From a virus: a stretch of 64,000 bases of DNA. Under the pieces are notes generated by a model. The model was not told the DNA's origin and searched no databases. It saw only the letters and a program-made list of their open reading frames with translations. A program made the position numbers and the translations under genes. Below are positions 2,563 through 52,662 of the stretch, one piece after another (position 1 is the first letter of the stretch; each line of letters starts with the position of its first letter). Location: IMG/VR virus record IMGVR_UViG_3300023174_000062. One strand, written 5' to 3'.

Positions 2563-3213
2563 ATGAAATTAATCACAGAAATTAACGAACAAGTAAATAT
2601 CATTTCCGAAGCAAACGAAGCGGGCGGAAAAAGTTTTTACATTGAAGGCGTCTTCATGCAAGCCGAACAACAAAACCGAAATGGTAGAATGTATCCATTA
2701 GCAGTTTTGCAAAAAGAAACTGAACGATACGTTATTGAAAGCGTAATGAAGAATCGTGCTTATGGAGAATTAGGGCATCCAGATGGTCCTTCTATTAACT
2801 TAGAACGTGTATCACACATTACTAAGAGTTTGCGTCAAGATGGAAACAACTTCATCGGTAAAGCAAAGATTATGGAAACTCCATATGGTAATATTGTAAA
2901 GAATTTGATGACTGAAGGCGCAACTCTTGGAGTATCTACAAGAGGTATGGGAAGCCTTACAGAAGGTAAAAACGGAGTTAAAATAGTCGGCAACGACTTT
3001 TATCTTGCGACTTGTGCGGACATTGTAGCAGACCCTTCAGCACCAGATGCATATGTACGTGGTATTATGGAAAACAAAGAGTGGGTTTGGGATAACGGCG
3101 TCATTAGAGAAATAGACGTTCAGAAACAAAGAACTTTTATTGAGAAATCGTCTAAAAAAGATTTAGAAGAAAACATGATAAAAGTCTTCAAAGATTTCAT
3201 CTCCAAACTATAA
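2563..3213 (+). CDS. gp21: prohead protease
   Basis: MKLITE start, NRNGRMYP, GELGHP, GVSTRGMGSL, DIVADPSAPDA. Confidence 0.97.
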   Translation: MKLITEINEQVNIISEANEAGGKSFYIEGVFMQAEQQNRNGRMYPLAVLQKETERYVIESVMKNRAYGELGHPDGPSINLERVSHITKSLRQDGNNFIGKAKIMETPYGNIVKNLMTEGATLGVSTRGMGSLTEGKNGVKIVGNDFYLATCADIVADPSAPDAYVRGIMENKEWVWDNGVIREIDVQKQRTFIEKSSKKDLEENMIKVFKDFISKL

Positions 3214-36928: not shown

Positions 36929-37262
36929 TGAAGACTACGAAATCACAACCCGTGATATCAAATACAAAGACAAAGATACTGTAGCATCTATCAAAATTAA
37001 TTCTGGCATGTATAAAGATGTGGAATTTAATTTTGGTGAGATTAATTTCTCCGAAGAAGAAAATCCCGATGGAACGTATTCAATCGGCTTCAACTATGAT
37101 ATAATAGATGAAGAACACAAAGCGTTACAAGGCAATAAAGACTTTGAAGCGCACCTCGGTGAAATTTTAAATGATCTTCTAAGAATCTCATTAGAAGAAG
37201 CAGAAAAAAGGTATAAGAATGAACTTGGAACAAAAAATACTGAAACACCTGATATTGGATGA
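36918..37262 (+). CDS. gp40: head vertex assembly chaperone-like protein
   Basis: Position between uvsX and gp41; size and acidic composition. Confidence 0.55.
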
Positions 37263-38628
37263 AGAGTATACACGTAAGACACTACCATTCATTAGAGGCG
37301 AGTATTTTCAAGAATCTTCAGAAAAACTATTGTTTACTGAGATTCAAAACTATGTGAATAAGTATAACTCAATGCCAACGCAAGAAGCGTTGGTTATTGA
37401 GATTGACAAGAGAATTAATCTAACAGATGACCAGCACAAGAAAACTATTGCGTTAGTCAAACAGATTACAATCGATCCTGAAGTATCAGACACTAAATGG
37501 TTGATTGATGCGACAGAAGATTTCTGTCAAGAGAAAGCAATCTACAATGGCATCATGCAGAGTATTCAAATTCTGGATGACAAAAACAAAACTGAAAAAC
37601 TTGATAAAGGTTCAATCCCTAAAATCTTAGCAGATGCACTTTCAGTTTCTTTTGATAATCACATTGGTCACGATTTTATTGATGACGCAGAAACACGATA
37701 TGACTTTTATCATAAAGTTGAAAAGCGAATCCCATTCGACCTAGACTATCTGAATCGAATCACTAAAGGTGGGCTTGCGGAAAAATCTTTGAACATTGTT
37801 CTTGCTGGTACTGGTGTTGGTAAGTCATTGTTCATGTGTCATTGTGCGGCAGCCAATCTAACAATGGGTAAGAATGTTTTATACATTACAATGGAAATGG
37901 CTGAAGAACGTATTGCAGAACGTATCGATGCAAACTTGATGAACGTTGAATTGGATCGATTGGTTGGTATGCCTAAAGAAACTTATCTACGCAAAGTTGA
38001 ATCTTTACGTGAGAAGACTAAGGGTAAACTAATCATCAAAGAATATCCAACCGCTAGTGCAAACGTAAATCACTTCTCACATTTGTTGAATGAGTTGAAA
38101 TTGAAACGTCAATTCATTCCCGATATCATCTACATTGACTATCTGAACATTTGTTCTTCCGCACGTATGAAGATGGGTTCTTCTATTAACTCATACACAT
38201 ACATTAAAGCAATCGCAGAAGAATTGCGTGGACTTGCAGTTGAACATAAAGTGCCAGTTGTATCTGCTACACAAACAACAAGAAGTGGTTACACAAACTC
38301 AGACGTTGGACTTGAAGATACTTCAGAATCGTTTGGTTTGCCTGCAACAGCAGACTTGATGTTTGCTTTGATTTCAACCGAAGAACTTGCAGAGTTGAAT
38401 CAGATTATGGTCAAGCAGTTAAAGAATCGATACAGCGACCCAACAACAAACAAGCGTTTTGTGATTGGTGTTGACAGAGCGAAAATGAAACTGTATGATG
38501 CAGAAGAGTCAGCGCAGACTAACATTTCCGATAGTGGGCAGATCGAAGACGATAGACCCGTATTCGATAAGTCTGGTTTCGGCAAACGAATGCAGAAAAA
38601 CCGAGATTTTGGCAATTTAAAGGTTTAA
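37219..38628 (+). CDS. gp41: replicative DNA helicase
   Basis: LAGTGVGKS, YITMEMAEE, IKEYPT, IDYLNI, SATQTTR, SESFGLPATAD, KQLKNRY. Confidence 0.98.
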   Translation: MNLEQKILKHLILDEEYTRKTLPFIRGEYFQESSEKLLFTEIQNYVNKYNSMPTQEALVIEIDKRINLTDDQHKKTIALVKQITIDPEVSDTKWLIDATEDFCQEKAIYNGIMQSIQILDDKNKTEKLDKGSIPKILADALSVSFDNHIGHDFIDDAETRYDFYHKVEKRIPFDLDYLNRITKGGLAEKSLNIVLAGTGVGKSLFMCHCAAANLTMGKNVLYITMEMAEERIAERIDANLMNVELDRLVGMPKETYLRKVESLREKTKGKLIIKEYPTASANVNHFSHLLNELKLKRQFIPDIIYIDYLNICSSARMKMGSSINSYTYIKAIAEELRGLAVEHKVPVVSATQTTRSGYTNSDVGLEDTSESFGLPATADLMFALISTEELAELNQIMVKQLKNRYSDPTTNKRFVIGVDRAKMKLYDAEESAQTNISDSGQIEDDRPVFDKSGFGKRMQKNRDFGNLKV

Positions 38629-38696
38629 TTTCATAATGTGAAATATACCCCTTTCCCTAAATATCTCTTGACAAAGTACCATAACTGTACTATAAT
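38628..38696 (+). promoter_or_regulatory. perfect sigma70 promoter with upstream palindrome
   Basis: TTGACA(38668)-N17-TATAAT(38691); ATTTCA-N5-TGAAAT at 38628-38644. Confidence 0.8.
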
Positions 38697-39680: not shown

Positions 39681-40328
39681 GTGAAATCAATAGCATTGTT
39701 TGTTAATCATCCCGAATGTTCAACAGATTGTTGTGATGGGATGATTAAAGCACTATCGTCAAACTATGAAATTAATTTATTTAATGTTGATAGTGATTTA
39801 GTGACAGTATTAAACAATGCAGATGTTGTTGCGTTTCCTGGAGGTATCGGAGATGCAGATTCTTATGATAAATTCTTTAGACGCAAACGTGCTAATATGA
39901 TAGCCGACTTTGTTGAATCTAAAGGATATTATCTCGGAATATGCATGGGTGCGTATTGGGCTGGTAGTCACTATTTTGATATACTAGATGACATTGAACC
40001 CGTTCAGTATATTAAACAACCAAATGCTGATATTCGTAGGTCTTATTCTACCATTGCGAACGTAACATGGAACGGCAAACCTGAGACAATGTTCTTCTAC
40101 GATGGATGTGCATTGACAGGCAATCTAGAACGTGCTAAAATAGTCTCTACTTATGCGAATGGTGACGCTATGGCAATCATTCAAAATAGAGTAGGAGTGA
40201 TTGGTTGCCATCCTGAGAGTCAGAAGTATTGGTATGAGAAGCCTAGAGCATACATATCAGAATACTGGCACGAAGAACGAAACCATAAATTGTTGTTAAA
40301 CTTTGTTGACGAACTTACATCATGTTAA
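39681..40328 (+). CDS. class I glutamine amidotransferase-like protein (BPL_N-like)
   Basis: FPGG, YLGICMGAY nucleophile elbow, GCHPE. Confidence 0.85.
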   Translation: MKSIALFVNHPECSTDCCDGMIKALSSNYEINLFNVDSDLVTVLNNADVVAFPGGIGDADSYDKFFRRKRANMIADFVESKGYYLGICMGAYWAGSHYFDILDDIEPVQYIKQPNADIRRSYSTIANVTWNGKPETMFFYDGCALTGNLERAKIVSTYANGDAMAIIQNRVGVIGCHPESQKYWYEKPRAYISEYWHEERNHKLLLNFVDELTSC

Positions 40329-40661: not shown

Positions 40662-40693
40662 TATAAATAGGTCTATTGCAACGACAGACCTAT
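40662..40693 (+). promoter_or_regulatory. late promoter overlapping a translation-blocking hairpin
   Basis: TATAAATA 40662-40669; ATAGGTCT-N11-AGACCTAT ends 1 nt before ATG 40695. Confidence 0.7.
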
Positions 40694-40694
40694 C

Positions 40695-41921
40695 ATGTTT
40701 AAATTTAAAGAATACCTTATTGAGAAGAAAAACACTCACATGGAACATGCGGAAGACGATGTTCTGAATGGTGGTGTTGAAGGAACTAGAGATAGCATAA
40801 ACGCACTCAGAGCGGTACGTGATATGCTTGCTGGACATTCCAAAAGCAAAGTTGACATTTCAGTCAAATGGGATGGTGCGCCAGCAGTCTTTGCAGGACA
40901 AGACCCAACTGACGGCAAGTTCTTTGTTGCGAAGAAGGGTGTCTTTAATAAAAATCCCAAAGTATACAAAACTCCAGCAGATATCGATGCAGACACTTCT
41001 GGTGACTTAGCAGACAAACTCAAAGCGTGTTTGATGTGGTTACCTAAGATCGGCATCAAAGGCGTCATTCAAGGCGACTTGCTATTCACACAATCCGACT
41101 TGAAGACAGAGACAATCGATGGTGAATCATATGTCACGTTTCACCCAAATACTTTAGTATATGCAGTACCAACAGGAACAGAACTTGCTAAACAGATACA
41201 AAAAGCAAAGATTGGTATTGTCTGGCACACAATCTACGAAGGTGATTCTTTCGAAACAATGTCAGCGGTCTTTGGCAAAGACATTCTAAGCACACTTACT
41301 CAAAGTCCAAACGTTTGGATGACAAGTGCAGTCTATCACGATGTTTCGGGTAAAGCGACATTGACACAAGCAGAAAATGACCAAGTGACAGCAATTCTAT
41401 CTGATGCTGGAAAGATATTCCAAAAACTAGATGCCGCTACTCTAAACTACATCAATACAGATGAAGACTTGATTGAACGCATCAAGACATTCAACAATTC
41501 AAAAGTACGTCAACAGTTAAAAATCACTAACGTCAAAGCGCACGTTAAAGAATTGATTACATACATTGAAGACTATTACGAGAAACAAGCCGAAGGAAAA
41601 GGTGAACGTGGCCGTGCTACTCAGATGTTAAAGAAGAGCAAAGTACTTAGATTTTTCTCACCAAAAAACAAAGCACACCTAGAAGACATTTTCACAATGA
41701 TGAATTTATTAGCAGAAGCGAAGTTGATTTTAATTAAGAAGATGGATGAAGTCAAAACGTTGAATACTTTCTTGTTGACAAAGAAAGGTTACGAAGTGAC
41801 TGGTGTTGAAGGTTATGTTGCTATCGATAAGATTAAAGGTAATGCAGTCAAGTTAGTTGACAGAATGCAATTCAGTTATGCAAACTTCTCACCTGATGTT
41901 ATTAAAGGTTGGCAGAGGTAA
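40695..41921 (+). CDS. RNA/DNA-ligase-superfamily nucleotidyltransferase-like protein with CTS-like N-terminus
   Basis: Motifs in order: SVKWDG (I), IQGDLL (III), EGYV (IV), AVKLVD (V); N-term MFKFKEYLIE. Confidence 0.6.
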   Translation: MFKFKEYLIEKKNTHMEHAEDDVLNGGVEGTRDSINALRAVRDMLAGHSKSKVDISVKWDGAPAVFAGQDPTDGKFFVAKKGVFNKNPKVYKTPADIDADTSGDLADKLKACLMWLPKIGIKGVIQGDLLFTQSDLKTETIDGESYVTFHPNTLVYAVPTGTELAKQIQKAKIGIVWHTIYEGDSFETMSAVFGKDILSTLTQSPNVWMTSAVYHDVSGKATLTQAENDQVTAILSDAGKIFQKLDAATLNYINTDEDLIERIKTFNNSKVRQQLKITNVKAHVKELITYIEDYYEKQAEGKGERGRATQMLKKSKVLRFFSPKNKAHLEDIFTMMNLLAEAKLILIKKMDEVKTLNTFLLTKKGYEVTGVEGYVAIDKIKGNAVKLVDRMQFSYANFSPDVIKGWQR

Positions 41922-42011
41922 TAAGGTTTAATCTGAAACCGGACACCTTTATGTATACATCGGGTAACTATATTTAATGGTAGATATGCACTAAACAAGG
42001 AAAATAATAAA

Positions 42012-42806
42012 ATGGCACAAGAAGGTTTTTTATATGAGGAGAATGCATATAAAGCATTGCAGAAATACAAAATTTCTACTGGCGGAGTTGCGGGTGCGTC
42101 CCATGATAAACCAGACCTGACCATTCAAAATAAATCGAAGAAAACTACTGGTTGCGAATTGAAGAACTCTCCGACTGCCGCAGGTTCTTTAGTTATGAAA
42201 TACTACGATGGTAAGTGGCAATTCGGTGACATTGGAACTGATCCTGAGAAAGAATTCTTAGTTGAATTAGCAAAGAAGTTCAATTTGCTAAGAGAGATGA
42301 ACACTAGCGGAACTCATGGTAAAGACTGGCGTGGTAAAGTGCCGTGTTTGCAAAATGACGCTAAAGGCAAGAAAATCATTGTTGGTGCTAAAGACAAGAC
42401 TGCCGCATACAAATCAGACTTAGAAAAGTTTGGTGCCCAAAATGAAGTGCATGTACCTATTCCAGCAAAAGCAATCTGTGACTATTATATTGCTAAAAAA
42501 TGTTCGTATATCAACGTAGGAACTCACGGATTCTTTACACTAGCAGGCAAAGATTTATTGGGTCTACAGCCAAAACTCAAAGCAAACAAGAATTCTCCGA
42601 TTCCCGATTTTGCTACTAATGCTTCTGCTGTTATTCGTGTTCGCTGTCAATATAAGGGTGGCGGAGACTATCAATTCGTTATGACGCTACAGTTTGGTAA
42701 AGTGTCAAAATCACCATATAACATTGCACCAATCAAAAAAGGTTCTGGTGCTACAATCGATGAAGCCGCATTAAAAGCAGACCCATTGCTTCTAGCGTTT
42801 ATGTAA
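42012..42806 (+). CDS. PD-(D/E)xK nuclease-like protein
   Basis: GFLYE...KPDLTI...CELK. Confidence 0.6.
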   Translation: MAQEGFLYEENAYKALQKYKISTGGVAGASHDKPDLTIQNKSKKTTGCELKNSPTAAGSLVMKYYDGKWQFGDIGTDPEKEFLVELAKKFNLLREMNTSGTHGKDWRGKVPCLQNDAKGKKIIVGAKDKTAAYKSDLEKFGAQNEVHVPIPAKAICDYYIAKKCSYINVGTHGFFTLAGKDLLGLQPKLKANKNSPIPDFATNASAVIRVRCQYKGGGDYQFVMTLQFGKVSKSPYNIAPIKKGSGATIDEAALKADPLLLAFM

Positions 42807-42808
42807 AT

Positions 42809-42816
42809 TATAAATA
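42809..42816 (+). promoter_or_regulatory. late promoter TATAAATA
   Basis: Exact consensus upstream of the 897-aa ORF. Confidence 0.85.
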
Positions 42817-42826
42817 AAGTATAACT

Positions 42827-42870
42827 CAGTTAGGCTACGGCAAACCTGTACAGATAAGTCTACGGAAAAC
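42827..42870 (+). repeat. tandem imperfect repeat in the late leader
   Basis: CAGTTAGGCTACGGCAAAC / CAGATAAGTCTACGGAAAAC. Confidence 0.6.
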
Positions 42871-42879
42871 TCTAAAAAT

Positions 42880-45573
42880 ATGAAATCGTTTAAAGAATCA
42901 GTATTGCTTGATGAAGCAAAAGCAAAAGGCAAAGTAATTGTCGTGTACGGTGGTGGCTTTCAGCCATTTCACGCAGGACATTTGAGTAGTTACACTCAAG
43001 CCAAACAGAAATTCCACACTCCAGACTTTTATGTTGCATCTAGCAACGACACAAAAGTTCGCCCAATCCCATTCAAAGATAAAGAATTCCTAGCGCAACA
43101 AGCAGGAGTTACAGACGATTTCGTTCAGGTCGTTCAGCCGATTAATCCAGAAGAGATTATGAAGAAGTATGACGAAAAGAAAGATATTCTTATTCTTATT
43201 CGTTCAGAACGTGACCCAATGAAGTACACAAAGAAAGATGGTTCACCAGCATATTATCAGCCATTTGTCAGCATTGACAAATGTGAATCATTTGAAACAC
43301 ACGCATACATTTTTGTAACTAAGAAACATGACTTTAAAGTCAATGGTCAAGAAGCATTCTCCGGCAGTCAAGTTAGAAAAATGTATTCAGATGCAGACTC
43401 AGAAGGTAGAGATAAAATCATTGGAGATTTATATCCAAAAGCAAAAAACAAGGCTAAGGTAAAAAAACTTTTAGACAAATACATAGGCGGTGGCATGAAC
43501 GAAGAAATAGAACAACAAGACGAAGCGGTACTTGGCTATGCACAACGTAGACAAAGGGCGCAAAGATTTAGAACAATGAACAAGCGTTTAGTAAGAGCAA
43601 GAGCGATGCAAGCAAAACGTTTTGCTGATCCTAAGAGATTGAAAAGAAGAGCCGCTAAGATGGCATATCAATTCTTCAGAGGGCGCCTTGCTGGTGGTAA
43701 GAACTATGCAGACTTGGGTGCTGGAGAGAAAATTGCAATCGACACTAGATTGCAAAAGATGTTGCCTGCAATTAAAAAGTTTGCAGTACGTTTAGTGCCA
43801 GCCGCTAGAAGTAAAGAGATTGCACGTAAACAAAACATGATGATGCGAAAAGAAGATTTGAATTTTATGTTTGCAGACTTCATTGTAGAGAAGCCAACTC
43901 TACCGCAAGATAAAGATGTTGCGAAGAAAGATGGAACACAACCTAAGAAGTATTATGTTGGTTTAGACAAAGACACAAAAGACGCTAGAGCATCACACTT
44001 TGCGACAAATGGACCAAAATCGGATTCAGATAAGAGTGCATACAAAGATGCGCCTGGTGACAAAGAGGCAAGAGAAAAAGGTATGCAACAATCAAAGCAT
44101 ACTAAGAAATTCAAACAGATGTATGGTGAAGCAGTAAAGACACCAGAAGAAAGAAAAGAAGTTTCTAGATTAGATCAATTGGTTCGTTTAGGATTAGCAG
44201 ATACCAAATCTCTTACAGTCATCAAACGTTCTGTTGAGAAATTAAAATCTGGTGACATGCTGAATCCGTCAGAGCGCAACGTCACAAATGATTTGTTGAC
44301 TACGTTACTTGATATGGTAACTTCAAGCGATGCATTGTTCAGAATGACAAAGACGCAGTTACAAAAAGAATCTATTGATGAAGCCGCATACAAAGGCAAC
44401 ATTGGTGCAATGGAGATGATGAAGTTCTTTCAAGTTGCAACGCCACAAGAAAAAGAAAAACTCAAAAAACTTATTGCAGATAAGAATCAATCAGCCGCTT
44501 GGAAAATGATTCAAGACGTTACTGGCATGAAACTCATGGGCGAAGAAGATGAGTATGATGATAGCGACTATGATGAGACTGATGGTCTCTCAATGGCACA
44601 GATTGAAGTTTCTAACATGATTCAAGACGCAGAAGAATTGCTTGAAATGATGGATGAAATGGATGAAGAACCAGATGCTTGGGTTCTATCTAAAATTACT
44701 AAAGCGGCCGACTATGTTTCAACAGTACGTGATTACTTAGAATTCGAAGGCGACTTTGATTATCAAGATGATGACGAAGAAGGTAATGGCGAAGATGATG
44801 ATGGTGAATTCACTGGTGCAGAATTAGACATGTATGCAAGTGAAATGGGACCAGATGAGTTTGGTGATGCATACGAAGAGTTTAAGCCAATCTTAGAAGA
44901 GATCGAAGGCTTGAAAAAGAAAGCAGAAAAGTCTGGCATTGCTTATGGTATTCTCAAAGCAGTTTACGACAGAGGTATGGCGGCTTGGCAAGGTGGCCAT
45001 CGTCCTGGAACAACACCACAGCAATGGGCATTCGCTAGAGTGAATTCGTTCATTACAAAAGGTCCTGGCACTTGGGGTAAAGCAGATAAAGATTTGGCTT
45101 CCAAAGTAAACAAGAATGAAGAGTTTTCTAAATTTGCTGAAGCATTAGAGTGGGGTACGGATGCAATGCGTAAAGCATATGCCTCAGATACTCCTGGTCA
45201 ATCTACAGAAATTCAAACAGCAGATCATCAATCTTGTTGCGGTGATTGCGAAAAAGATTCAATTGGAGAAGAAGTTGATTGGGAACAAGTTGTCAATGAA
45301 GCAGACTATCAAGGTAAATCTGTTAAGTTGAATGATCCATTCAGAACACCTGATGGTCCAAAGAAGTTTGGCGTATACACTATGGGACCAAATGGTAAAG
45401 TTGTTGTTGTTCGTTTTGGTGATCCTAATATGGAAATCAAACGTGACGATCCTGAGAGATTAAAGAGTTATCGTGCTAGACACGGTTGCGACAATCCTGG
45501 ACCAAAGTGGAAAGCAAACTATTGGTCTTGCCAAATGTGGCGTTCAGACAAAAGCGTAAGCGATTTAGATTAA
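42880..45573 (+). CDS. modular virion protein: HIGH-family nucleotidyltransferase domain plus many small domains
   Basis: MKSFKESVLLDE N-term; GGGFQPFHAGH and SGSQVR; later modules QPKKYY, TPQQWAFARVNSF, VRFGDP..ARHGC..YWSC. Confidence 0.75.
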   Translation: MKSFKESVLLDEAKAKGKVIVVYGGGFQPFHAGHLSSYTQAKQKFHTPDFYVASSNDTKVRPIPFKDKEFLAQQAGVTDDFVQVVQPINPEEIMKKYDEKKDILILIRSERDPMKYTKKDGSPAYYQPFVSIDKCESFETHAYIFVTKKHDFKVNGQEAFSGSQVRKMYSDADSEGRDKIIGDLYPKAKNKAKVKKLLDKYIGGGMNEEIEQQDEAVLGYAQRRQRAQRFRTMNKRLVRARAMQAKRFADPKRLKRRAAKMAYQFFRGRLAGGKNYADLGAGEKIAIDTRLQKMLPAIKKFAVRLVPAARSKEIARKQNMMMRKEDLNFMFADFIVEKPTLPQDKDVAKKDGTQPKKYYVGLDKDTKDARASHFATNGPKSDSDKSAYKDAPGDKEAREKGMQQSKHTKKFKQMYGEAVKTPEERKEVSRLDQLVRLGLADTKSLTVIKRSVEKLKSGDMLNPSERNVTNDLLTTLLDMVTSSDALFRMTKTQLQKESIDEAAYKGNIGAMEMMKFFQVATPQEKEKLKKLIADKNQSAAWKMIQDVTGMKLMGEEDEYDDSDYDETDGLSMAQIEVSNMIQDAEELLEMMDEMDEEPDAWVLSKITKAADYVSTVRDYLEFEGDFDYQDDDEEGNGEDDDGEFTGAELDMYASEMGPDEFGDAYEEFKPILEEIEGLKKKAEKSGIAYGILKAVYDRGMAAWQGGHRPGTTPQQWAFARVNSFITKGPGTWGKADKDLASKVNKNEEFSKFAEALEWGTDAMRKAYASDTPGQSTEIQTADHQSCCGDCEKDSIGEEVDWEQVVNEADYQGKSVKLNDPFRTPDGPKKFGVYTMGPNGKVVVVRFGDPNMEIKRDDPERLKSYRARHGCDNPGPKWKANYWSCQMWRSDKSVSDLD

Positions 45574-45586
45574 AGCGGAGATACAC

Positions 45587-47302
45587 ATGAAAGATATAGA
45601 AGAAGCAAAAGTTGGATCAGGTACAGCAATCGCAGATAAGTCTGCTGAGAAACGTGCCCAATTATCATTGAAAATGGTTCAGTTACGCATGAAACAAAAT
45701 AAAGAACGTGAGGCACTTGCCGCACAAAGAAAGTCTTTACAAAAGGAAGAGACAATGACTGAATCATTTAGCGCATCTCAAATTGCCGCTTTGAAAACAG
45801 AGTACTCTAAGATTAATGGAATTGATCCATCAAGTGACACATACAAGAAATTGATTGCTATGCTTGATAGATTAGATTTGAAATCTTTGAAATCTCTTGC
45901 TGGCGCTGAAATCAAGTTCGTATCTAAACTCGCACAGAATCGTGTTGCTAGAAAAAACGTAAAAGAAGAAATTCAACTTGCCGAGTTGTCAACAAATAAA
46001 CTAGCAGACTATAAAAAGAAAGCAGGTGCATCCGCATCGGCGGCTGATAAAGCAGGCGACACAAAAACAGGCAACAAACGTTTCTCTGGCATTATGAAAG
46101 CAACCAGAAAGCAATTCGACAATGACGCAAAGAAAAGTGTGTCAGAGGCTTCACAAAGAGTTGACTCACTTGTGACTGACGCATTAAAAGTAATGCAAGG
46201 TTCAGAGTTAAAAGATGCCGTACAAGCATTAAAGACTGTGCTTGGAGATAGAGAATACAATGACCGCCGTGGGCATTACAATTTCTATGTCAAACAACTA
46301 GTTGACATGTATGGTAAGAAAACAAACGAAGAGTTGTCACCAAAGCAAAAACAAATCGACAAGAATAAGAACGGCAAGATTGACGGATTCGATTTAGCAC
46401 ACTTACGTAAGAAGACTGAAGAGTTGTCACCAAAACAAAAAGCACTTGATAAAAACAAGAATGGTAAAATTGATGGTTCTGATTTAGCAAAGTTACGCAA
46501 AGAAGAAACAGACTTACAAGAAAAGTCTGACTACGAAGTTTATCATAAAGACTATTCTGGTGCAGTACAAGCCGCTATCAAGCAAGCAGAGAAGCGTGGC
46601 TTTGAAGTAGACATGGACGATTGGCACGACAAAGTTGCTACTGGTCCTAAGAAGCCTTCTGCTGGTAAAACAAATTCATTCTCTGTCAAGTTGAAGAAAG
46701 ACGGCAAAGAATCTAAGAAAGCATTGCATCTTCAAGTGTACAACATGGACAATCACAAGTATGAGTTGAACATGTACATTGAATCTGTAAAAGAAGCATC
46801 CTCACCTGCACAACAAGCGGCTATCGCTATTGCTATGAAGAAGGCTGGTAAGAAGCCTAAAGACATGGAAGAGAGTGACGCATACGACAAAGACGTTAAG
46901 CCAAGCGACAAGCCACACGATAAAGAAGCGGCCGCCAAACGTGCAAAACTAGCCGCATTAGCCGCTAGAAAGAAAATGACCGAAGGTCTAATGGATAAGA
47001 TTAAAGCGATTAAGCGTGGTATGCAGGCTAAAGATAAAGCAGATGACCATTGGGACAAAGCAGGCGATCCAAAGAATCCAGAAGCAAAGAAAGATTTGAA
47101 GAAAGCAGTTCGCTATACCAATCTTTTAAACAAAGAAGAAGTTATCGTGACTGAAGCCAAAAAGAAAACTTGGAAAGACATGAGAAAAAAAGTAAAGAAT
47201 GAAGAAGCACCCAATAAGGCTACAGTTAAAAAAGGCGATGATTTGAGTGGTAAGAGAGAACCAATCGAAATTAATCCAGAATTGAAAGACACGGCGAAAT
47301 AA
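45587..47302 (+). CDS. modular basic virion protein with two EF-hand-like repeats
   Basis: Short K/A-rich modules separated by xxE/EE; DKNKNGKIDGxD twice. Confidence 0.7.
   Translation: MKDIEEAKVGSGTAIADKSAEKRAQLSLKMVQLRMKQNKEREALAAQRKSLQKEETMTESFSASQIAALKTEYSKINGIDPSSDTYKKLIAMLDRLDLKSLKSLAGAEIKFVSKLAQNRVARKNVKEEIQLAELSTNKLADYKKKAGASASAADKAGDTKTGNKRFSGIMKATRKQFDNDAKKSVSEASQRVDSLVTDALKVMQGSELKDAVQALKTVLGDREYNDRRGHYNFYVKQLVDMYGKKTNEELSPKQKQIDKNKNGKIDGFDLAHLRKKTEELSPKQKALDKNKNGKIDGSDLAKLRKEETDLQEKSDYEVYHKDYSGAVQAAIKQAEKRGFEVDMDDWHDKVATGPKKPSAGKTNSFSVKLKKDGKESKKALHLQVYNMDNHKYELNMYIESVKEASSPAQQAAIAIAMKKAGKKPKDMEESDAYDKDVKPSDKPHDKEAAAKRAKLAALAARKKMTEGLMDKIKAIKRGMQAKDKADDHWDKAGDPKNPEAKKDLKKAVRYTNLLNKEEVIVTEAKKKTWKDMRKKVKNEEAPNKATVKKGDDLSGKREPIEINPELKDTAK
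46328..46507 (+). repeat. 90-bp tandem duplication encoding an EF-hand-like module
   Basis: GAAGAGTTGTCACCAAA at 46328 and 46418. Confidence 0.85.
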
Positions 47303-47303
47303 C

Positions 47304-47798
47304 ATGACAAACGAGTTGCCACAAATTTATTGTGACATGGATCAAGTATTGGTCAATTTCATTGGCGGTGCAAACAAAGCATTGTCGGATCAGGGATTAG
47401 GTCGATTTCAAGACATAGAGAAGTCTGTTAAGTGGGAAGCACTACAGAAAGTTCCTAAGTTTTGGGCTAATCTTCCGCCAATGTCTGATGCTATGACACT
47501 TTGGAGATTCATTCGTCCACACGGACCATTCATTCTTTCGACTCCTTCTAAGCATATGGCTACATGTAAGCAAGAAAAAACTGAATGGGTCAGAAAGCAT
47601 TTAGGTAATGTAGAACACATTTACCTTGTTCCGAGAGAAAACAAGCAAAAATTTGCAGTTACTGAAGACGGAAAGCCTAATCTATTAATTGATGATTACG
47701 AAAAAAACATCAAAGAATGGGTTTCTGCTGGAGGAATTGGAATACGACATATAAATAGTATGAACACTATTTTACAATTACGAAAACTAGGATATTAA
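47304..47798 (+). CDS. HAD-family 5'(3')-deoxyribonucleotidase
   Basis: IYCDMDQVL, ILSTP, EKTEWV, LLIDDYEKN. Confidence 0.85.
   Translation: MTNELPQIYCDMDQVLVNFIGGANKALSDQGLGRFQDIEKSVKWEALQKVPKFWANLPPMSDAMTLWRFIRPHGPFILSTPSKHMATCKQEKTEWVRKHLGNVEHIYLVPRENKQKFAVTEDGKPNLLIDDYEKNIKEWVSAGGIGIRHINSMNTILQLRKLGY
47750..47757 (+). promoter_or_regulatory. late promoter inside the nucleotidase 3' end
   Basis: TATAAATA about 60 bp upstream of ATG 47814, which has an AAGGAG SD. Confidence 0.65.
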
Positions 47799-47813
47799 TA
47801 AAAGGAGAACACC

Positions 47814-48293
47814 ATGGCACTATGGGGAACAAGAGATTCATTTGCAATCACAGGAACAGTTAGCGTAGCCAACACTACCACAACAGTTACAGGTAATGCA
47901 AACACAGTTTTTACTACACAACTTAACATTGGTGACACATTAGTCATTAATGGTAGAAGACGCAGAGTTGATGCGATTTCAGCGGCCAATAACTTAACTA
48001 TTGGTACTGCTTGGAATACAGCAAACGTATCTGCTGGAACCATTACGGGTCAAGACACACCAGTTTATGTATCAGCAGAAGAAATTTCTTCTAATAACAT
48101 TATTGGTGTAGACACAACTGAAGCCGGCATTACTGCTAACAAAGCAAGAGGTATTAATACACCAGGCTGGACTAAGTATGTGACATATACAGACATGCAT
48201 GGCAATACACGATACAAAACAGAACCTTTAGTGGTTATGGGTGCTGGCGTATCTTCTGATGCACCAGATGACACTATTGCGGCAGACAGTTAA
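47814..48293 (+). CDS. virion structural protein
   Basis: MALWG start, T-rich beta domain, PGW..Y..Y.D.HG..R.K.E.LV. Confidence 0.7.
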   Translation: MALWGTRDSFAITGTVSVANTTTTVTGNANTVFTTQLNIGDTLVINGRRRRVDAISAANNLTIGTAWNTANVSAGTITGQDTPVYVSAEEISSNNIIGVDTTEAGITANKARGINTPGWTKYVTYTDMHGNTRYKTEPLVVMGAGVSSDAPDDTIAADS

Positions 48294-48361
48294 TTTTCAA
48301 TATTGACCTGAGTCCCAGGAGTAGCATTCCCATTCAATTGGGTTTACATTAAGGAAAAGAA

Positions 48362-48898
48362 ATGGCAGATAAAAAAGTAACGCAGTTAACAGCATTGACT
48401 GCACCGACACAAGACGATTTATTATTAATCATTGATGATCCAGCAGGCTCACCAGTAAGTAAGAAAATTACTGTTGGTGATCTATTGGGTAGAACATCAC
48501 AAGTATCATCAAACACAATCAATCTTGCTTCAGTAGGTGACACATCATTGAATGCAAACAATTTTACAGTAACAACAACCAATCAAGTTACATTCACTAA
48601 AGGTCTTTCGATCAATAGTGGCGGTACGCAATCTGATACTAAAATTGCGACTGACAATCAAGCAAACATGTTCTATGTTAATGCGACTACAGATAAGATT
48701 GGTTTGATGACAAACACACCATCTGAAGTATTAGACATTAATTCTGATGCAGTTCGTGTGCGTACTGCTAGAACACCAGCAAGTTCAAACAATACAGCAG
48801 TTGGTTGGGGTGTTGGCACTATTGCTTGGGATGCAAGTTATTTGTATGTTGCAGTTAATGCATCCACAATTAAGCGAGTAGCACTAAGTTCATTCTAA
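48362..48898 (+). CDS. virion structural / fibre-like protein
   Basis: MADKKVTQLTAL...DLLLIID..KKIT; C-term GTIAWDASYLYVAV...KRVALSSF. Confidence 0.7.
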   Translation: MADKKVTQLTALTAPTQDDLLLIIDDPAGSPVSKKITVGDLLGRTSQVSSNTINLASVGDTSLNANNFTVTTTNQVTFTKGLSINSGGTQSDTKIATDNQANMFYVNATTDKIGLMTNTPSEVLDINSDAVRVRTARTPASSNNTAVGWGVGTIAWDASYLYVAVNASTIKRVALSSF

Positions 48899-49254
48899 TG
48901 ATTATTTTAAATAATGATAATTTTGATGAATATGCAGTAGGCAATTATATCAATCCAAATTGTGTATCTGTGCTAGAATTTCTAGATGATTTAAAAATAA
49001 TTAAATACATCAAGAGACTCATAAACAAATATGCAGACAAACAGGAATTGAAAGAGAGATTGATACTTAATCACATCATATCTCTTTCAAATGTTTTTGG
49101 AGTTGAGGCTACTGTAAATATGTTGATGTTCAGAATAGATAAAACACATCATCATATTTTGAGTGCATTTTTTGTTTATCTTGATTACATCGAATTAGAA
49201 AACGTAGAAGTTTTAGATTTAGCATTGTATAATAAATTAAAGAAGATCATTTAA
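48898..49254 (+). CDS. conserved T4-like hypothetical protein
   Basis: YINPNC...EFLDDLK..KYIKRL...ERLILNHII...NVFG. Confidence 0.75.
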   Translation: MIILNNDNFDEYAVGNYINPNCVSVLEFLDDLKIIKYIKRLINKYADKQELKERLILNHIISLSNVFGVEATVNMLMFRIDKTHHHILSAFFVYLDYIELENVEVLDLALYNKLKKII

Positions 49255-50294
49255 TGGCAAATTTAGTAGACTTATACTTAGTGTATCGAATTTTAAGATT
49301 GTTTACTACTCCGTTCGCAGAGTGGGAAGCAAACAAAACTGGTGTTATTGATGACGAAGGAAACATTGTTGTTCCTCAAGATAAAAGAACAATAGCACAA
49401 GATGATTCATTCACTAAGTTCGACTTATTGATTCTAAAACTCAAACGAGTTTTGGAAAAATTGCCGTTTGGTAAAACTAAACTAGCATCATATGCGGCCG
49501 CATTGTTCCTTCTCAAAGAAGAAAAGAATATTAAAGAAGATACATTAGAAGAACAGTTCTTAGAGTATTACAATGGGCAAAGTTATTTAACTGAAAATGT
49601 ACCAGTAAACAATGTTGGTGGTGGAAACATTGCTGGCGCTAATGGTGATCCACCAAAGCCAACTAAAGTTATGATACGTAGATTTGCAAATCACGATGTG
49701 TTTGTTGTTGATGGAAAGAAATTCAATGACGCACGTTTTGGTAAAAAGAAATATCTTAAGTATGAGAAGTATGTTGGCAACGATGAAGTTGGAAATGCGA
49801 TTCGTGACTATGGGCGCAAGTATCCTAAGAAGCCAATTATCATACAAGACGAATTAACGGGTGCTATGACATTCTTACGTCATGGGCGCAACGGAATGTT
49901 CAGAGAGCAATTTGAACGAGAGCAATTAGTTGAAGAAGTGTCCCAAGCGCAATTGACTGAATTGGAAAAATACTTAGATCAATTGTTCAAAGTGTTAAAT
50001 GTTGATGTTGCATTCACTAAGCATTTTTTAGATAGAGTTAACGATGCACGTAATGGTAAACCTATCACAGTAGATGAATTGCAGTTGTTATTTAAGAAGA
50101 CGATTCAGAAGTATGGTAAGAAAATACCTGCTTTAGGACCTGATGCTGAAGCAGTATTGAATGATATGAAGACGCAAATCAATTTACCATTTGTATTGAA
50201 GTGGGATAGAGATGCGGAAGAGTTAGATTTAGTAGCAAAGACAGTTATGCGTAAAAAGAATTTTATGACGCATAATCAAAAATTCACAGTATAA
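49254..50294 (+). CDS. conserved T4-like protein with C-terminal BECR/RelE-like domain
   Basis: N-term TTPFAEW...GVIDDEG; C-term FTKHFLDRVND...LVAKTVMRK after LVEE. Confidence 0.6.
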   Translation: MANLVDLYLVYRILRLFTTPFAEWEANKTGVIDDEGNIVVPQDKRTIAQDDSFTKFDLLILKLKRVLEKLPFGKTKLASYAAALFLLKEEKNIKEDTLEEQFLEYYNGQSYLTENVPVNNVGGGNIAGANGDPPKPTKVMIRRFANHDVFVVDGKKFNDARFGKKKYLKYEKYVGNDEVGNAIRDYGRKYPKKPIIIQDELTGAMTFLRHGRNGMFREQFEREQLVEEVSQAQLTELEKYLDQLFKVLNVDVAFTKHFLDRVNDARNGKPITVDELQLLFKKTIQKYGKKIPALGPDAEAVLNDMKTQINLPFVLKWDRDAEELDLVAKTVMRKKNFMTHNQKFTV

Positions 50295-50428: not shown

Positions 50429-50875
50429 ATGTGGATTTTAGAATGGTTGCCTAATTGGATTTTCTATGCAGTCTTCTTTGCAGGATTGCTTGGACTTGTT
50501 GCAACGTATTTTCTAAAGTTCATTCCATTTTTATCAACGTATCAGATTCCGATACAAGTATTGTCTGTTATCGCATTGTGCTTTGGTACATACATGGCAG
50601 GTGCTATATCAGACAATGAATCTTGGCTTGCTAAAGTAAAAGATGTTGAAGCAAAAGTTGCAGAAGTTCAAGTACAGTCTGCTAAAGAAAATGTAAAGAT
50701 TGTTGAAAAGGTAGTTAAGAAAATTGAAATTGTTAGAGTGCAAGGTAACGAAGTCATAAAGTATGTTGACCGAGAAGTTGTGAAGTACGACACTAAATTT
50801 GCACCAGGTGGTATTTGTGAAATACCTAAAGAATTTTTCGTAGCACATAATGATGCGGCAAAGGATTCAAGATGA
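50429..50875 (+). CDS. inner-membrane spanin (Rz-like)
   Basis: N-terminal TM helices, coiled coil, C-terminal Cys (CEIP); directly upstream of a lipoprotein. Confidence 0.7.
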   Translation: MWILEWLPNWIFYAVFFAGLLGLVATYFLKFIPFLSTYQIPIQVLSVIALCFGTYMAGAISDNESWLAKVKDVEAKVAEVQVQSAKENVKIVEKVVKKIEIVRVQGNEVIKYVDREVVKYDTKFAPGGICEIPKEFFVAHNDAAKDSR

Positions 50876-51141
50876 ATAAATACCTTGCACCATTATTGCT
50901 TATATTAGTAACGGGATGTTCAACTGTCGTTCCAGTGACAGTAAAATTTCCTGATGCACCAGATAGAATAAAAATTAAATGCCCCCAGTTAAAAACCCTA
51001 AACGAAGAGGCTAAGTTGTCCGACATAGCCAAGACAATAACCGAAAACTACACAACGTATTACGAATGTGCAGTTAGAAATGACGCTTGGATAGAATGGT
51101 ACGAGACCCAAAAAATAATTTTCGAGAAGTTAAACAAATGA
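50872..51141 (+). CDS. outer-membrane spanin lipoprotein (Rz1-like)
   Basis: Lipobox LVTG-C, Pro-rich segment, two further Cys. Confidence 0.75.
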   Translation: MNKYLAPLLLILVTGCSTVVPVTVKFPDAPDRIKIKCPQLKTLNEEAKLSDIAKTITENYTTYYECAVRNDAWIEWYETQKIIFEKLNK

Positions 51142-51569: not shown

Positions 51570-51608
51570 TTGACTTCCAGTCGAATGTACGCTATAATAT
51601 ACATTCGA
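51570..51608 (+). promoter_or_regulatory. sigma70 promoter with -10 inside an inverted repeat
   Basis: TTGACT-N17-TATAAT; TCGAATGTA-N10-TACATTCGA. Confidence 0.7.
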
Positions 51609-51639: not shown

Positions 51640-52662
51640 ATGAGTATTTGGATAGACCAAAAGTACATTGGTACACTCTCGGTTCGCTTGGACAAATTTG
51701 TCCGTAAAGGCGACTACACCTACAACTTCAGATGCCCTATCTGCGGTGACTCCCAAACAAATCGAAACAAGGCACGTGGATACATCTTTGCACAAAAAGG
51801 TGGACTCTTCTACAAGTGTCACAATTGTGCTGTCAGCATTTCGCTAGGCAGTCTAATCAAAGCAGTTGACCCAAACCTTTACAAAGAGTATTGCCTAGAG
51901 CGATACAAAGAAGGCGAGACAGGTCGCAAAGCACACAAAGAACACGGATTTATTTTTAAGCCTGTCACATTTGGCAGTAACAAAACAGACAATCTAAAAG
52001 GTGTTCTAACTTCCTTATCTAAACTCGGCGATACGCATGAGGCGATTGTATATGCACGTTCACGAAAGATTCCTGAGAACAAACTAAAGACGTTATACTA
52101 CGTTGACAATGTTCAGAAGTTGAAAGTCTTTTCTCCAGAGTATGAAGAGAAGATTGTGACTGAAGAACCTAGAATCGTATTGCCGTTCTATGATAAAGAT
52201 GATGAACTAGTTGGATTAACAGCCCGTGGTATTCGTGGTGAGAAACAGCGTTATCTTGTGATGAAAATAAAAGATGATTCGCCCATGATTTACAACATGA
52301 ACGGGATAGATATAACACAGACTATTTTTGTTACTGAAGGTCCGATTGATAGTTTGTTCTTACCTAATGCAGTCGCAGTTGGAAATTCTAATTTGAAGTA
52401 TGTACTTAATTACTTACCGAAAGATAAGTTAGTATTGATTTACGACAACGAACCACGTAATAAAGAAATCGTAAGAGAGATTGGTGATGCAATTGACGCA
52501 GGCGCAAACGTAGTCATATGGCCAAAATCATATGAAGAAAAAGATATAAATGATATGATACTTGCCGGAAAAACGCAGGATGAAATCTTGAATACTATAA
52601 ATAAATTTACTTTTCGTGGTCCTAAAGCACTACTTGAATACAACATATGGAAGATGAGATGA
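51640..52662 (+). CDS. gp61: DNA primase
   Basis: NFRCPICGDS, CHNC, TEGPIDSLF, YDNEPRN, KDINDM. Confidence 0.96.
   Translation: MSIWIDQKYIGTLSVRLDKFVRKGDYTYNFRCPICGDSQTNRNKARGYIFAQKGGLFYKCHNCAVSISLGSLIKAVDPNLYKEYCLERYKEGETGRKAHKEHGFIFKPVTFGSNKTDNLKGVLTSLSKLGDTHEAIVYARSRKIPENKLKTLYYVDNVQKLKVFSPEYEEKIVTEEPRIVLPFYDKDDELVGLTARGIRGEKQRYLVMKIKDDSPMIYNMNGIDITQTIFVTEGPIDSLFLPNAVAVGNSNLKYVLNYLPKDKLVLIYDNEPRNKEIVREIGDAIDAGANVVIWPKSYEEKDINDMILAGKTQDEILNTINKFTFRGPKALLEYNIWKMR

Follow-up and report, generated by a model that had tools for sequence, protein, structure and literature searches.

The window analysed here is a stretch of 64,000 nucleotides (nt) from an uncultured aquatic T4-like myovirus (IMGVR_UViG_3300023174_000062). 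In the interval from 40,662 to 50,294, two genes on the + strand encode proteins that start with a short leader resembling the capsid targeting sequence (CTS) of phage T4: a DUF6267 protein of 408 amino acids (aa) (40,695–41,921) and a modular, nucleotidyltransferase-led protein of 897 aa (42,880–45,573). Since these predicted enzymes share the head-loading tag of T4, their likely fate is loading into the capsid and trimming by the head protease. From the sequence comparisons described below we favour, with some reservation, the reading that a T4-type leader directs both proteins, and probably also the 571-aa product of the open reading frame (ORF) at 45,587, to the prohead, that a gp21-type protease trims them, and that the mature particle retains at least the nucleotidyltransferase. 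An earlier reading made from the letters alone (the sequence-only reading) had assigned the whole interval to such cargo. The block lies, as that reading had stated, between genes for a DnaB-like helicase (37,219–38,628) and a primase (51,640–52,662).

The major capsid protein of this phage (4187–5530) is 64–68% identical to those of Pelagibacter phage Mosig, Methylophilales phage Melnitz, Stenotrophomonas phage DLP6 and T4-like cyanophages. At the DNA level, a Megablast search with the block returned no known phage. Many uncultured relatives are present in IMG/VR, among them a complete genome of 150,107 bp with terminal repeats (G001), which is about 87% identical to the window and syntenic with it. 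The block also shares its gene order with the interval from gp41 to gp61 in T4-like cyanophages.

The T4-type late promoter motif TATAAATA is present as an exact copy at the three positions for which late promoters had been proposed, all on the + strand: at 40,662–40,669, 33 nt before the start of the DUF6267 gene, at 42,809–42,816, 71 nt before ORF 42880, and at 47,750–47,757, 64 nt before ORF 47814. The window contains nine copies, all on the + strand, and four of the six outside the block lie in front of head or tail genes; the genes that follow a copy of the motif include those for scaffold, capsid and tail tube. The raw count is weak by itself, as five of 100 shuffles reach nine. We regard conservation in relatives, rather than this count, as decisive for the promoter case: the motif is kept at equal upstream distance before the DUF6267 gene in 56 of 74 relatives (modal distance 33 nt), before the 897-aa gene in 29 of 29 and before the homolog of ORF 47814 in 24 of 25, and in no relative was it found upstream of the remaining block genes. 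This conserved placement divides the interval into three putative late units, 40695 (with 42012), 42880-45587-47304 and 47814-48362-48898-49254. We infer late timing of the leader-bearing genes from the conserved motif; a literature search on expression timing of the cyanophage homologs returned nothing usable. A perfect hairpin (GGTCT, 11-nt loop, AGACC; 40,670–40,692) directly follows the promoter at 40,662 and ends 2 nt before the ATG of the DUF6267 gene.

In T4, the CTS is MKTYQEFIAE (PMC8442874). Suppressor analysis assigned targeting mainly to residues 4 and 7 (Y4, F7) and processing to residues 8 and 10, and gp21 cleaves after L/I-x-E (PMC9026906). The DUF6267 protein starts with MFKFKEYLIE (40,695–40,724, + strand), ten residues with F4, Y7, L8 and E10, and a gp21 cut is predicted after E10. 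We aligned 43 distinct leader variants of close DUF6267 homologs. All 43 have F at position 4, Y or F at position 7, L or I at position 8 and E at position 10, while positions 2, 3, 5, 6 and 9 vary. Because the invariant positions 4, 7, 8 and 10 equal those mapped in T4, we regard this leader as a T4-type CTS. Different synonymous codons occur at the four invariant positions (TTT/TTC; TAT/TAC/TTC/TTT; CTT/TTA/CTA/ATT/ATA; GAA/GAG), which argues for selection on the peptide and not on a nucleotide signal in the start region.

ORF 42880 starts with the leader MKSFKESVLLDE (42,880–42,915, + strand; 12 residues), which sits before strand 1 of the nucleotidyltransferase and is predicted to be cut after E12 (L-D-E|A). 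In relatives of this ORF the leader reads MKTFKASLTE or MKSFKQAFSTSITE. Two further leaders are found in the T4-type head operon, which starts with the portal gene (55–993), followed by three small ORFs, the genes for the gp21-type prohead maturation protease (2563–3213, + strand; phrog_207 head maturation protease, E = 1.2e-76) and the gp22 scaffold, and that for the gp23 capsid protein, which has L-S-E|A at aa 59–61, where the propeptide site is expected. The first of the small ORFs (1252–1758, + strand, 168 aa), located between portal and protease, carries MKTFKSFIQLDE (F4, F7, ending in L-D-E), and the third (2232–2555, + strand, 107 aa) carries MLKFKDFVSMSNEQLDE and is very basic after the predicted L-D-E|A cut. 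The N-termini of ORFs 40695, 42880, 1252 and 2232 read as quoted in the sequence-only reading. The ORF between the two leader-bearing head-operon ORFs (1760–2230, 156 aa, starting with MADTVTSQTLKDHASAWAVK) is conserved in nearly all relatives and has neither a leader nor a family match.

The head-operon leaders were surveyed in 80 loci recovered via the protease (63–97% protease identity). The ORF following the portal gene starts with MKTFKSFIQLDE, MKTFKQIIAE, MKTFRDILNE, MKTFKQLFE and similar sequences, and the short, highly basic ORF preceding the protease gene starts with MLKFKDFIS..LDE, MFGFKDFLSE or MIRFKEFLEE. The N-termini of T4 gp67 and gp68 show no resemblance to the leader, so that these ORFs are positional and not sequence counterparts of gp67 and gp68.

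A strict leader pattern matched two ORFs in the window where 0.037 were expected (P = 0.001); a loose pattern matched four where 0.09 were expected, and none of 5000 resamplings reached four. Scanning every ATG on both strands of the window returned the leader at the same four genes only, and in the complete genome G001 it occurs on the coding strand only at these four genes as well. The leader can also be joined to unrelated proteins: directly after the DUF6267 gene of one relative (L068:2531–3577) lies a gene for an unrelated 348-aa protein without family match that starts with MKFKQFITE, which by its sequence is a different putative cargo under the same tag. Instead of a capsid tag, the shared N-terminus might reflect a preference at translation starts, a matter of N-terminal stability or some other function, with the enzymes acting late in the cytoplasm. 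This notion draws on the richness of the leaders in AAA and TTT codons, which is typical of efficient starts, and on homologs that do without the leader (about half for the 897-aa protein and about 15% of the DUF6267 representatives); the leaderless DUF6267 of cyanophage S-PM2 is still preceded by the late-promoter-like AATAAATA. We consider this explanation very unlikely. It is the amino acids that are conserved, precisely at positions 4, 7, 8 and 10, while their codons vary synonymously, and other strongly expressed late genes (gp22, gp23, tail tube, ORF 47814) lack the leader, which in G001 is confined to four genes. Moreover, the motif persists at internal fusion joints, where a role in initiation is impossible. 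In two relatives (L044 and L046) the DUF6267 and 897-aa genes are fused, and the joint retains ...GSAMKESFIRE|AKTK.

To describe the DUF6267 family more broadly, 150 representatives with 36–56% identity were drawn from 2639 matches. The canonical leader was present in 53 of them and a non-canonical N-terminal extension with [LIVM]xE in 38; 22 had no leader. Among cultured phages, Phage C48C1 has a homolog with 54.5% identity across residues 1–406. Where the DUF6267 domain is internal, [LIVM]xE lies at most 14 residues upstream of it in 17 of 18 cases. The conserved domain (Pfam DUF6267, E = 3.6e-107) begins immediately past residue 10, which is the predicted cut, and leaderless homologs such as S-PM2d138 start at this point. 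In the AlphaFold2 (AF2) model of the protein (mean pLDDT 93.8, pTM 0.90) only residues 1–10 fall below pLDDT 50, and they are thus modelled as disordered. Directly past the predicted cut lies an invariant H15-x-x-H18 (KNTHMEHAEDD; aa 15–19, 40,737–40,751). A metal-binding N-terminus at these residues could become exposed or active once the leader is removed.

DUF6267 had been suggested to be a ligase-like protein with a KxDG motif, and this was borne out. K58-W-D60-G61 (motif I, KxDG), D128, E372-G373 and K386 do not vary among 87 sequences with identities as low as 36%. They follow the canonical ligase order of motifs I, III (D128), IV (EG) and V (K), the assignment being made by order and not by residue-level superposition. 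When the AF2 model was compared with solved structures by VIA-align, the seven best matches were all RNA ligases: REL1 (1xdn, Z 8.2), the Naegleria nick-sealing ligase (5cot, 8.0), T4 Rnl1, Trl1, T4 Rnl2 and a second Rnl2 entry (1s68) with 7.4 each, and fungal Trl1 (7.2). For the RNA ligases 176–207 residues were aligned; DNA ligases came next with Z values of 5.5–6.5. Foldseek gave no match at E ≤ 0.001 (its best rows were DNA ligases with E values of 0.07–0.5), and a phmmer search against PDB sequences returned nothing meaningful. As the VIA-align Z values are moderate, the ligase-fold match rests on fold and motifs together. Compared to the RNA ligases Rnl2/REL1, Rnl1 and Trl1 (PDB 1xdn, 5cot, 9do4, 6n0t, 2hvq), DUF6267 shares the fold of the adenylyltransferase domain (Z 8.2–7.4, 176–201 aligned residues), the lysine of the KxDG motif and the EG and K motifs in canonical order. 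It differs by an identity of only 11–15% without a sequence match to a solved structure, by a helical insert of about 125 residues (about aa 225–351) and by the invariant N-terminal H-x-x-H. On the basis of model and motifs we file DUF6267 as a putative RNA-ligase-like covalent nucleotidyltransferase.

From N- to C-terminus, the 897-aa protein consists of a nucleotidyltransferase (aa 13 to about 205), a basic helical module, conserved small modules, an acidic stretch, DUF5824 (aa 678–738) and a phrog_7595 module (aa 806–887). The nucleotidyltransferase of the HIGH type that had been proposed is confirmed by a match to Pfam CTP_transf_like (PF01467; 27.2 bits, cut-off 21) and by G33, H34, S161 and R166 of the (H/T)xGH and SxxxxR motifs, which are invariant in 33 homologs. 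The module shows weak similarity to PPAT, CCT and NadD. The NadD/NMNAT models stay far below their cut-offs (12–17 bits versus 112–397), and the best matches among PDB sequences are all weak (PPAT, E = 0.05; NadD, 0.4). AF2 modelling of the full protein gave a mean pLDDT of 54 and a pTM of 0.29.

In relatives, the nucleotidyltransferase module (42,916–43,494 in the window) exists in two versions that cannot be aligned, GGGFQPFHAGH, as in the window, and FGRMNPMTNGH. Either version can occupy this position, while the remainder of the proteins is 60–80% identical (L035, L043, L016, L070); judged from the alignments, this looks like an intragenic cassette swap. The C-terminal modules are found as separate genes in relatives and then bear leaders of their own (MKSFKEFLEE, MKSFKEYGAVEE, MIPFKKFNAISE). 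The phrog_7595 module (45,283–45,540, aa 802–887) also occurs as a free small gene in podo- and siphoviruses of Roseobacter and Pelagibacter, in Flavobacterium phages and in spindle-shaped archaeal viruses of Nitrosopumilaceae, with 40–57% identity.

Indirect experimental evidence on the packaging of such proteins comes from published virion proteomes of cyanophages. In phage S-SM1, the gene following the DUF6267 homolog (SSM1_190, T4-GC190, annotated as 'cytitidyltransferase') encodes a protein that starts with MKKFSAFLNE. Close relatives of the 897-aa protein match it in their nucleotidyltransferase module with 42–46% identity (E about 1e-45). Sullivan et al. 2010 detected T4-GC190 in purified S-SM1 virions with 25 peptides (PMC3037559, Table S8). 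The same virions held the products of the neighbouring genes T4-GC1453, T4-GC1454, T4-GC1455, T4-GC425 and T4-GC426 (PMC3037559), and T4-GC1455 starts with MLSFKELQE. The S-SM1 homolog of DUF6267 (T4-GC71) has no leader and is not in the virion Table S8 (PMC3037559). In phage S-CREM2, gp154 ('cytidylyltransferase') starts with MKNFSSFLTE and has TATAAATA upstream; it was detected in virions, and the authors proposed encapsidation (PMC10665884). Neither study (PMC3037559, PMC10665884) mentions a targeting sequence. T4-GC190, a cyanophage core gene, shares with the window a homologous module, the same neighbourhood beside DUF6267 and the same type of leader. The window differs in having the alternative GGGFQPFHAGH cassette, with about 690 aa of additional modules behind it.

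These data bear on the question of whether leader proteins are anything other than parts of the prohead core or scaffold. As such they would be cut like T4 gp22, gp67 and gp68, the fragments would leave before DNA packaging, and nothing functional would reach the next host. The same leader is indeed found on ORFs between portal and protease, where T4 encodes core proteins, the basic helical and strongly acidic stretches of the long proteins look scaffold-like, and T4 core proteins are cut to several fragments that exit the head (PMC9026906). Nevertheless, leader-bearing nucleotidyltransferase homologs were recovered from purified mature virions of both S-SM1 (25 peptides) and S-CREM2, along with the S-SM1 neighbours T4-GC1454 and T4-GC1455, and in DUF6267 as well as in the nucleotidyltransferase, conservation of the catalytic motifs favours enzymes over scaffold filler. 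We therefore regard a role restricted to the scaffold as unlikely.

The 571-aa modular protein (45,587–47,302, + strand) contains two DKNKNGKIDG(F/S)DL repeats at aa 255–305, which correspond to EF-hand/dockerin-type Ca loops. The EF-hand modules seen in the sequence-only reading are best described as two dockerin-type loops, since Dockerin_1 reaches 26.1 bits (cut-off 22.9) and the EF-hand models remain below their own cut-offs (EF-hand_1, 23.5 bits; cut-off 25.4). At its N-terminus the protein has an I-E-E|A site, and [IV]xE|A(K/E)VGSGT is conserved there in 9 of 9 homologs, some of which carry MRLLDKFKSVTE ahead of it. This co-transcribed protein probably belongs with the tagged cargo.

The long proteins may also be cut internally. 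No more than eight [LIV]xE motifs occur in ORF 42880, and most are conserved and coincide with module joints; candidate gp21 sites are E12, E337 (conserved in 10 of 11), E501 (10/10), E673/674 (11/11), E797 (9/11) and E807 (7/11). ORF 45587 has seven such motifs, with six candidate sites at E6 (9/9), E133 (9/9), E187, E312, E403 and E523; the seventh motif, V-K-E (aa 125–127), is conserved in only three of nine. Cassette insertions in relatives of ORF 45587 start and stop at L-D-E, I-D-E or I-A-E. In the AF2 model of the 897-aa protein, four of the six candidate sites lie in segments with pLDDT < 50, which cover 43% of the chain; this is not significant.

Several observations weigh against the reading of tagged and processed cargo. 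The leader patterns behind the statistics were written after the data had been seen. The leader of ORF 42880 has F4, but Ser instead of an aromatic residue at position 7. The leader, the absence of which from homologs the sequence-only reading had named as evidence against itself, is missing, for the 897-aa protein, in 16 of the 33 unique homologs and, for DUF6267, in 22 of the 150 representatives (about 15%); the homolog of cyanophage S-PM2 lacks it too. Its absence from so many 897-aa homologs suggests that the tag was often gained and lost; it may be dispensable, or leaderless forms of the cargo may behave differently. T4-GC190 was not detected in the proteomes of S-PM2 or Syn9 (PMC3037559). 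No detection of DUF6267 in a virion has been published, and our literature search found no paper mentioning DUF6267 and, apart from a citation in passing, none connecting the CTS with cyanophages. The enrichment of [LI]xE at indel boundaries is modest (0.29 versus 0.19 and 0.41 versus 0.22), and these boundaries are non-independent; our reading does not lean on it. As the full-length model of the 897-aa protein is poor, it is unfit to judge whether the cut sites lie in linkers. For the internal sites the evidence consists of motif conservation only, and internal cutting may be called plausible.

Taken together, the following course of events would account for the data. Transcription of the tagged genes would be driven by gp55-type late promoters. 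The leader, M-x-x-F-x-x-[Y/F]-[L/I]-x-E, would then bind to the assembling scaffold core, as would the two head-operon proteins; such binding is suggested by the match to CTS residues 4 and 7 of T4. The gp21-type protease would cut past the [L/I]-x-E of the leader and probably also, in the long proteins, at conserved [L/I/V]-x-E joints between modules. The mature enzymes would remain in the DNA-filled head, in line with the nucleotidyltransferase homologs in the two published virion proteomes, and by analogy with the T4 internal proteins and Alt they might exit with the DNA at infection. Delivery to the host, and any role in counter-defence, we consider doubtful. Equally speculative is the most far-reaching version, in which a widespread group of related T4-like phages from marine and fresh waters fills its capsids in advance, via the T4-type tag, with an active RNA-ligase-like enzyme and a nucleotidyltransferase-led chain of modules, which would be separated by the prohead protease and injected with the DNA, and would repair RNA or nucleotide-cofactor damage inflicted by defence systems before phage genes are expressed.

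The closest known systems are the internal proteins and Alt of T4, and what we describe is a variant of the T4 CTS/gp21 system and not a new kind. With IPI, IPII and IPIII of T4 (Mullaney and Black 1996 via PMC9026906; PMC8442874), the proteins described here share a 10-residue leader with aromatic residues at positions 4 and 7, L/I8 and E10, a gp21-family protease, late promoters and the portability of the leader between unrelated proteins. The T4 internal proteins are small and basic, whereas the cargo here would be an RNA-ligase-like enzyme of 408 aa and a multi-module protein of 897 aa. Further differences are the position of the tagged genes between helicase and primase genes and the presence of the tag on ORFs at the gp67/gp68 position, the T4 counterparts of which have different N-termini. 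Alt is an ADP-ribosyltransferase that is packaged in the T4 head, processed by gp21 at its two ends and injected (PMC9026906). The cargo would resemble Alt in enzyme size, in loading through propeptides, in processing by the prohead protease and in a presumed action at the start of the next infection. The enzymes differ from Alt (ligase-like and (H/T)xGH nucleotidyltransferase), and possible internal cuts would release several modules.

Phages phiKZ, 201phi2-1 and SPN3US have the cleavage motif S/A/G-x-E. They belong to another phage lineage than the phage described here with its L/I-x-E, have no cargo families in common with it and lack a 10-residue leader of the T4 type. Short cut motifs ending in Glu, some proteins with multiple sites, and ejection proteins carried in the head are common ground: in these three phages, head or inner-body proteins are extensively cut after Glu by a gp21-like protease (PMC9026906, PMC5694885).

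Until now, interest in the T4 CTS has centred on the internal proteins of T-even phages and on its use as a biotechnology tool. If our reading is true, the T4 mechanism extends to enzyme cargo in abundant environmental T4-like phages, and the unexplained 'cytidylyltransferase' in two cyanophage virion proteomes is explained. It would also provide a simple sequence rule to predict proteins that travel in the capsids of uncultured T4-like phages, and single out DUF6267, a family of more than 2600 cluster representatives, as a candidate for an RNA-ligase-like enzyme, maybe one delivered at infection. The capsid-tag reading is directly testable in cultured cyanophages.

The idea that the entire interval from 40,662 to 50,294 is a single injected enzyme toolkit against tRNA-cleaving or NAD-depleting defences has to be judged from the remaining genes. 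It would fit the RNA-ligase-like fold of DUF6267, the (H/T)xGH nucleotidyltransferase with its weak similarity to NadD, NMNAT and PPAT, and the late promoters. However, a tag or N-terminal cut site is found on only two, perhaps three, of the nine ORFs, the rest being untagged or structural, and the nucleotidyltransferase module is exchanged between two types in relatives. The claim of gp21-processed cargo is supported for DUF6267 and the 897-aa protein, based on leader, protease, late promoters and virion homologs, and finds no support for 42012, 47304 and 47814–50294, so that the block is not one cargo module. The properties of these untagged genes, described in the following, make a toolkit comprising the whole interval highly improbable in our view.

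ORF 42012 (42,012–42,806, + strand, 264 aa), located between the two cargo genes, has no leader and is a sporadic accessory gene present in 10 of 74 related loci. No match was found in Pfam, PHROG or NCBIfam. The PD-(D/E)xK nuclease proposed for this ORF could not be confirmed; a weak Atlas lead (R-HINP1I on 14% of one neighbouring cluster, score 0.93) points to a restriction-nuclease-like fold as a possibility. The slot between the DUF6267 and nucleotidyltransferase genes is variable and may be empty, hold ORF 42012 or hold a different gene of 266 aa (L019:4233–5033, L023:4182–4982). This alternative gene is 33% identical (E = 4e-34) to SSM1_188 of S-SM1 (T4-GC1453), which was detected in virions; between ORF 42012 and the version in L023 there is marginal similarity at the motif level only (E = 0.1).

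ORF 47304 (47,304–47,798, + strand), which shares a late unit with 42880 and 45587, has no leader. It is a 5′(3′)-deoxyribonucleotidase of the NT5C/HAD type (NT5C, 26.3 bits, cut-off 24.8; phrog_2643, E = 3.9e-27), in agreement with the HAD nucleotidase predicted earlier; it does not match a healing enzyme of the Pnkp type.

None of the four ORFs of the third late unit (47,814–50,294, + strand) has a CTS-like leader, and the unit contains a relative of structural proteins and a core gene. ORF 47814 belongs to a family of virion structural or head proteins (phrog_613 head protein, E = 8e-22), and mass spectrometry identified its homolog S-PM2d145 (T4-GC537) as a structural component of virions. 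BLASTP gave no link between ORF 47814 and SSM1_195 of S-SM1 (T4-GC425), which has the same position and was also detected in virions. ORF 48362 has a weak match to tail proteins, and ORF 48898 encodes DUF7207, the product of a cyanophage core gene. ORF 49254 (346 aa) has no family match. A BECR-like RNase had been proposed for its C-terminal part (aa ~225–346) and finds no support in Pfam, NCBIfam, PHROG function, PDB sequences or the Atlas, where its neighbours have no family; phmmer against PDB retrieved only Cgi121 (weak, E = 0.1). ORF 49254 was also considered as a counterpart of the virion-detected T4-GC426 and rejected, as BLASTP found nothing and hhalign gave a probability of 0.3%.

Other features surround the block. 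Just upstream of it, a protein resembling class-I glutamine amidotransferases and BPL_N, without a PHROG family, is encoded at 39,681–40,328. Strong sigma-70-like promoters are located at both ends, at 38,668–38,696 and 51,570–51,598 (12/12 and 11/12 consensus matches), and are candidate early promoters for the genes following the helicase gene and for primase. The late block ends before the primase gene with an Rz/Rz1-like spanin pair (50,429–51,141), composed of a membrane-anchored ORF and an overlapping lipoprotein-like ORF.

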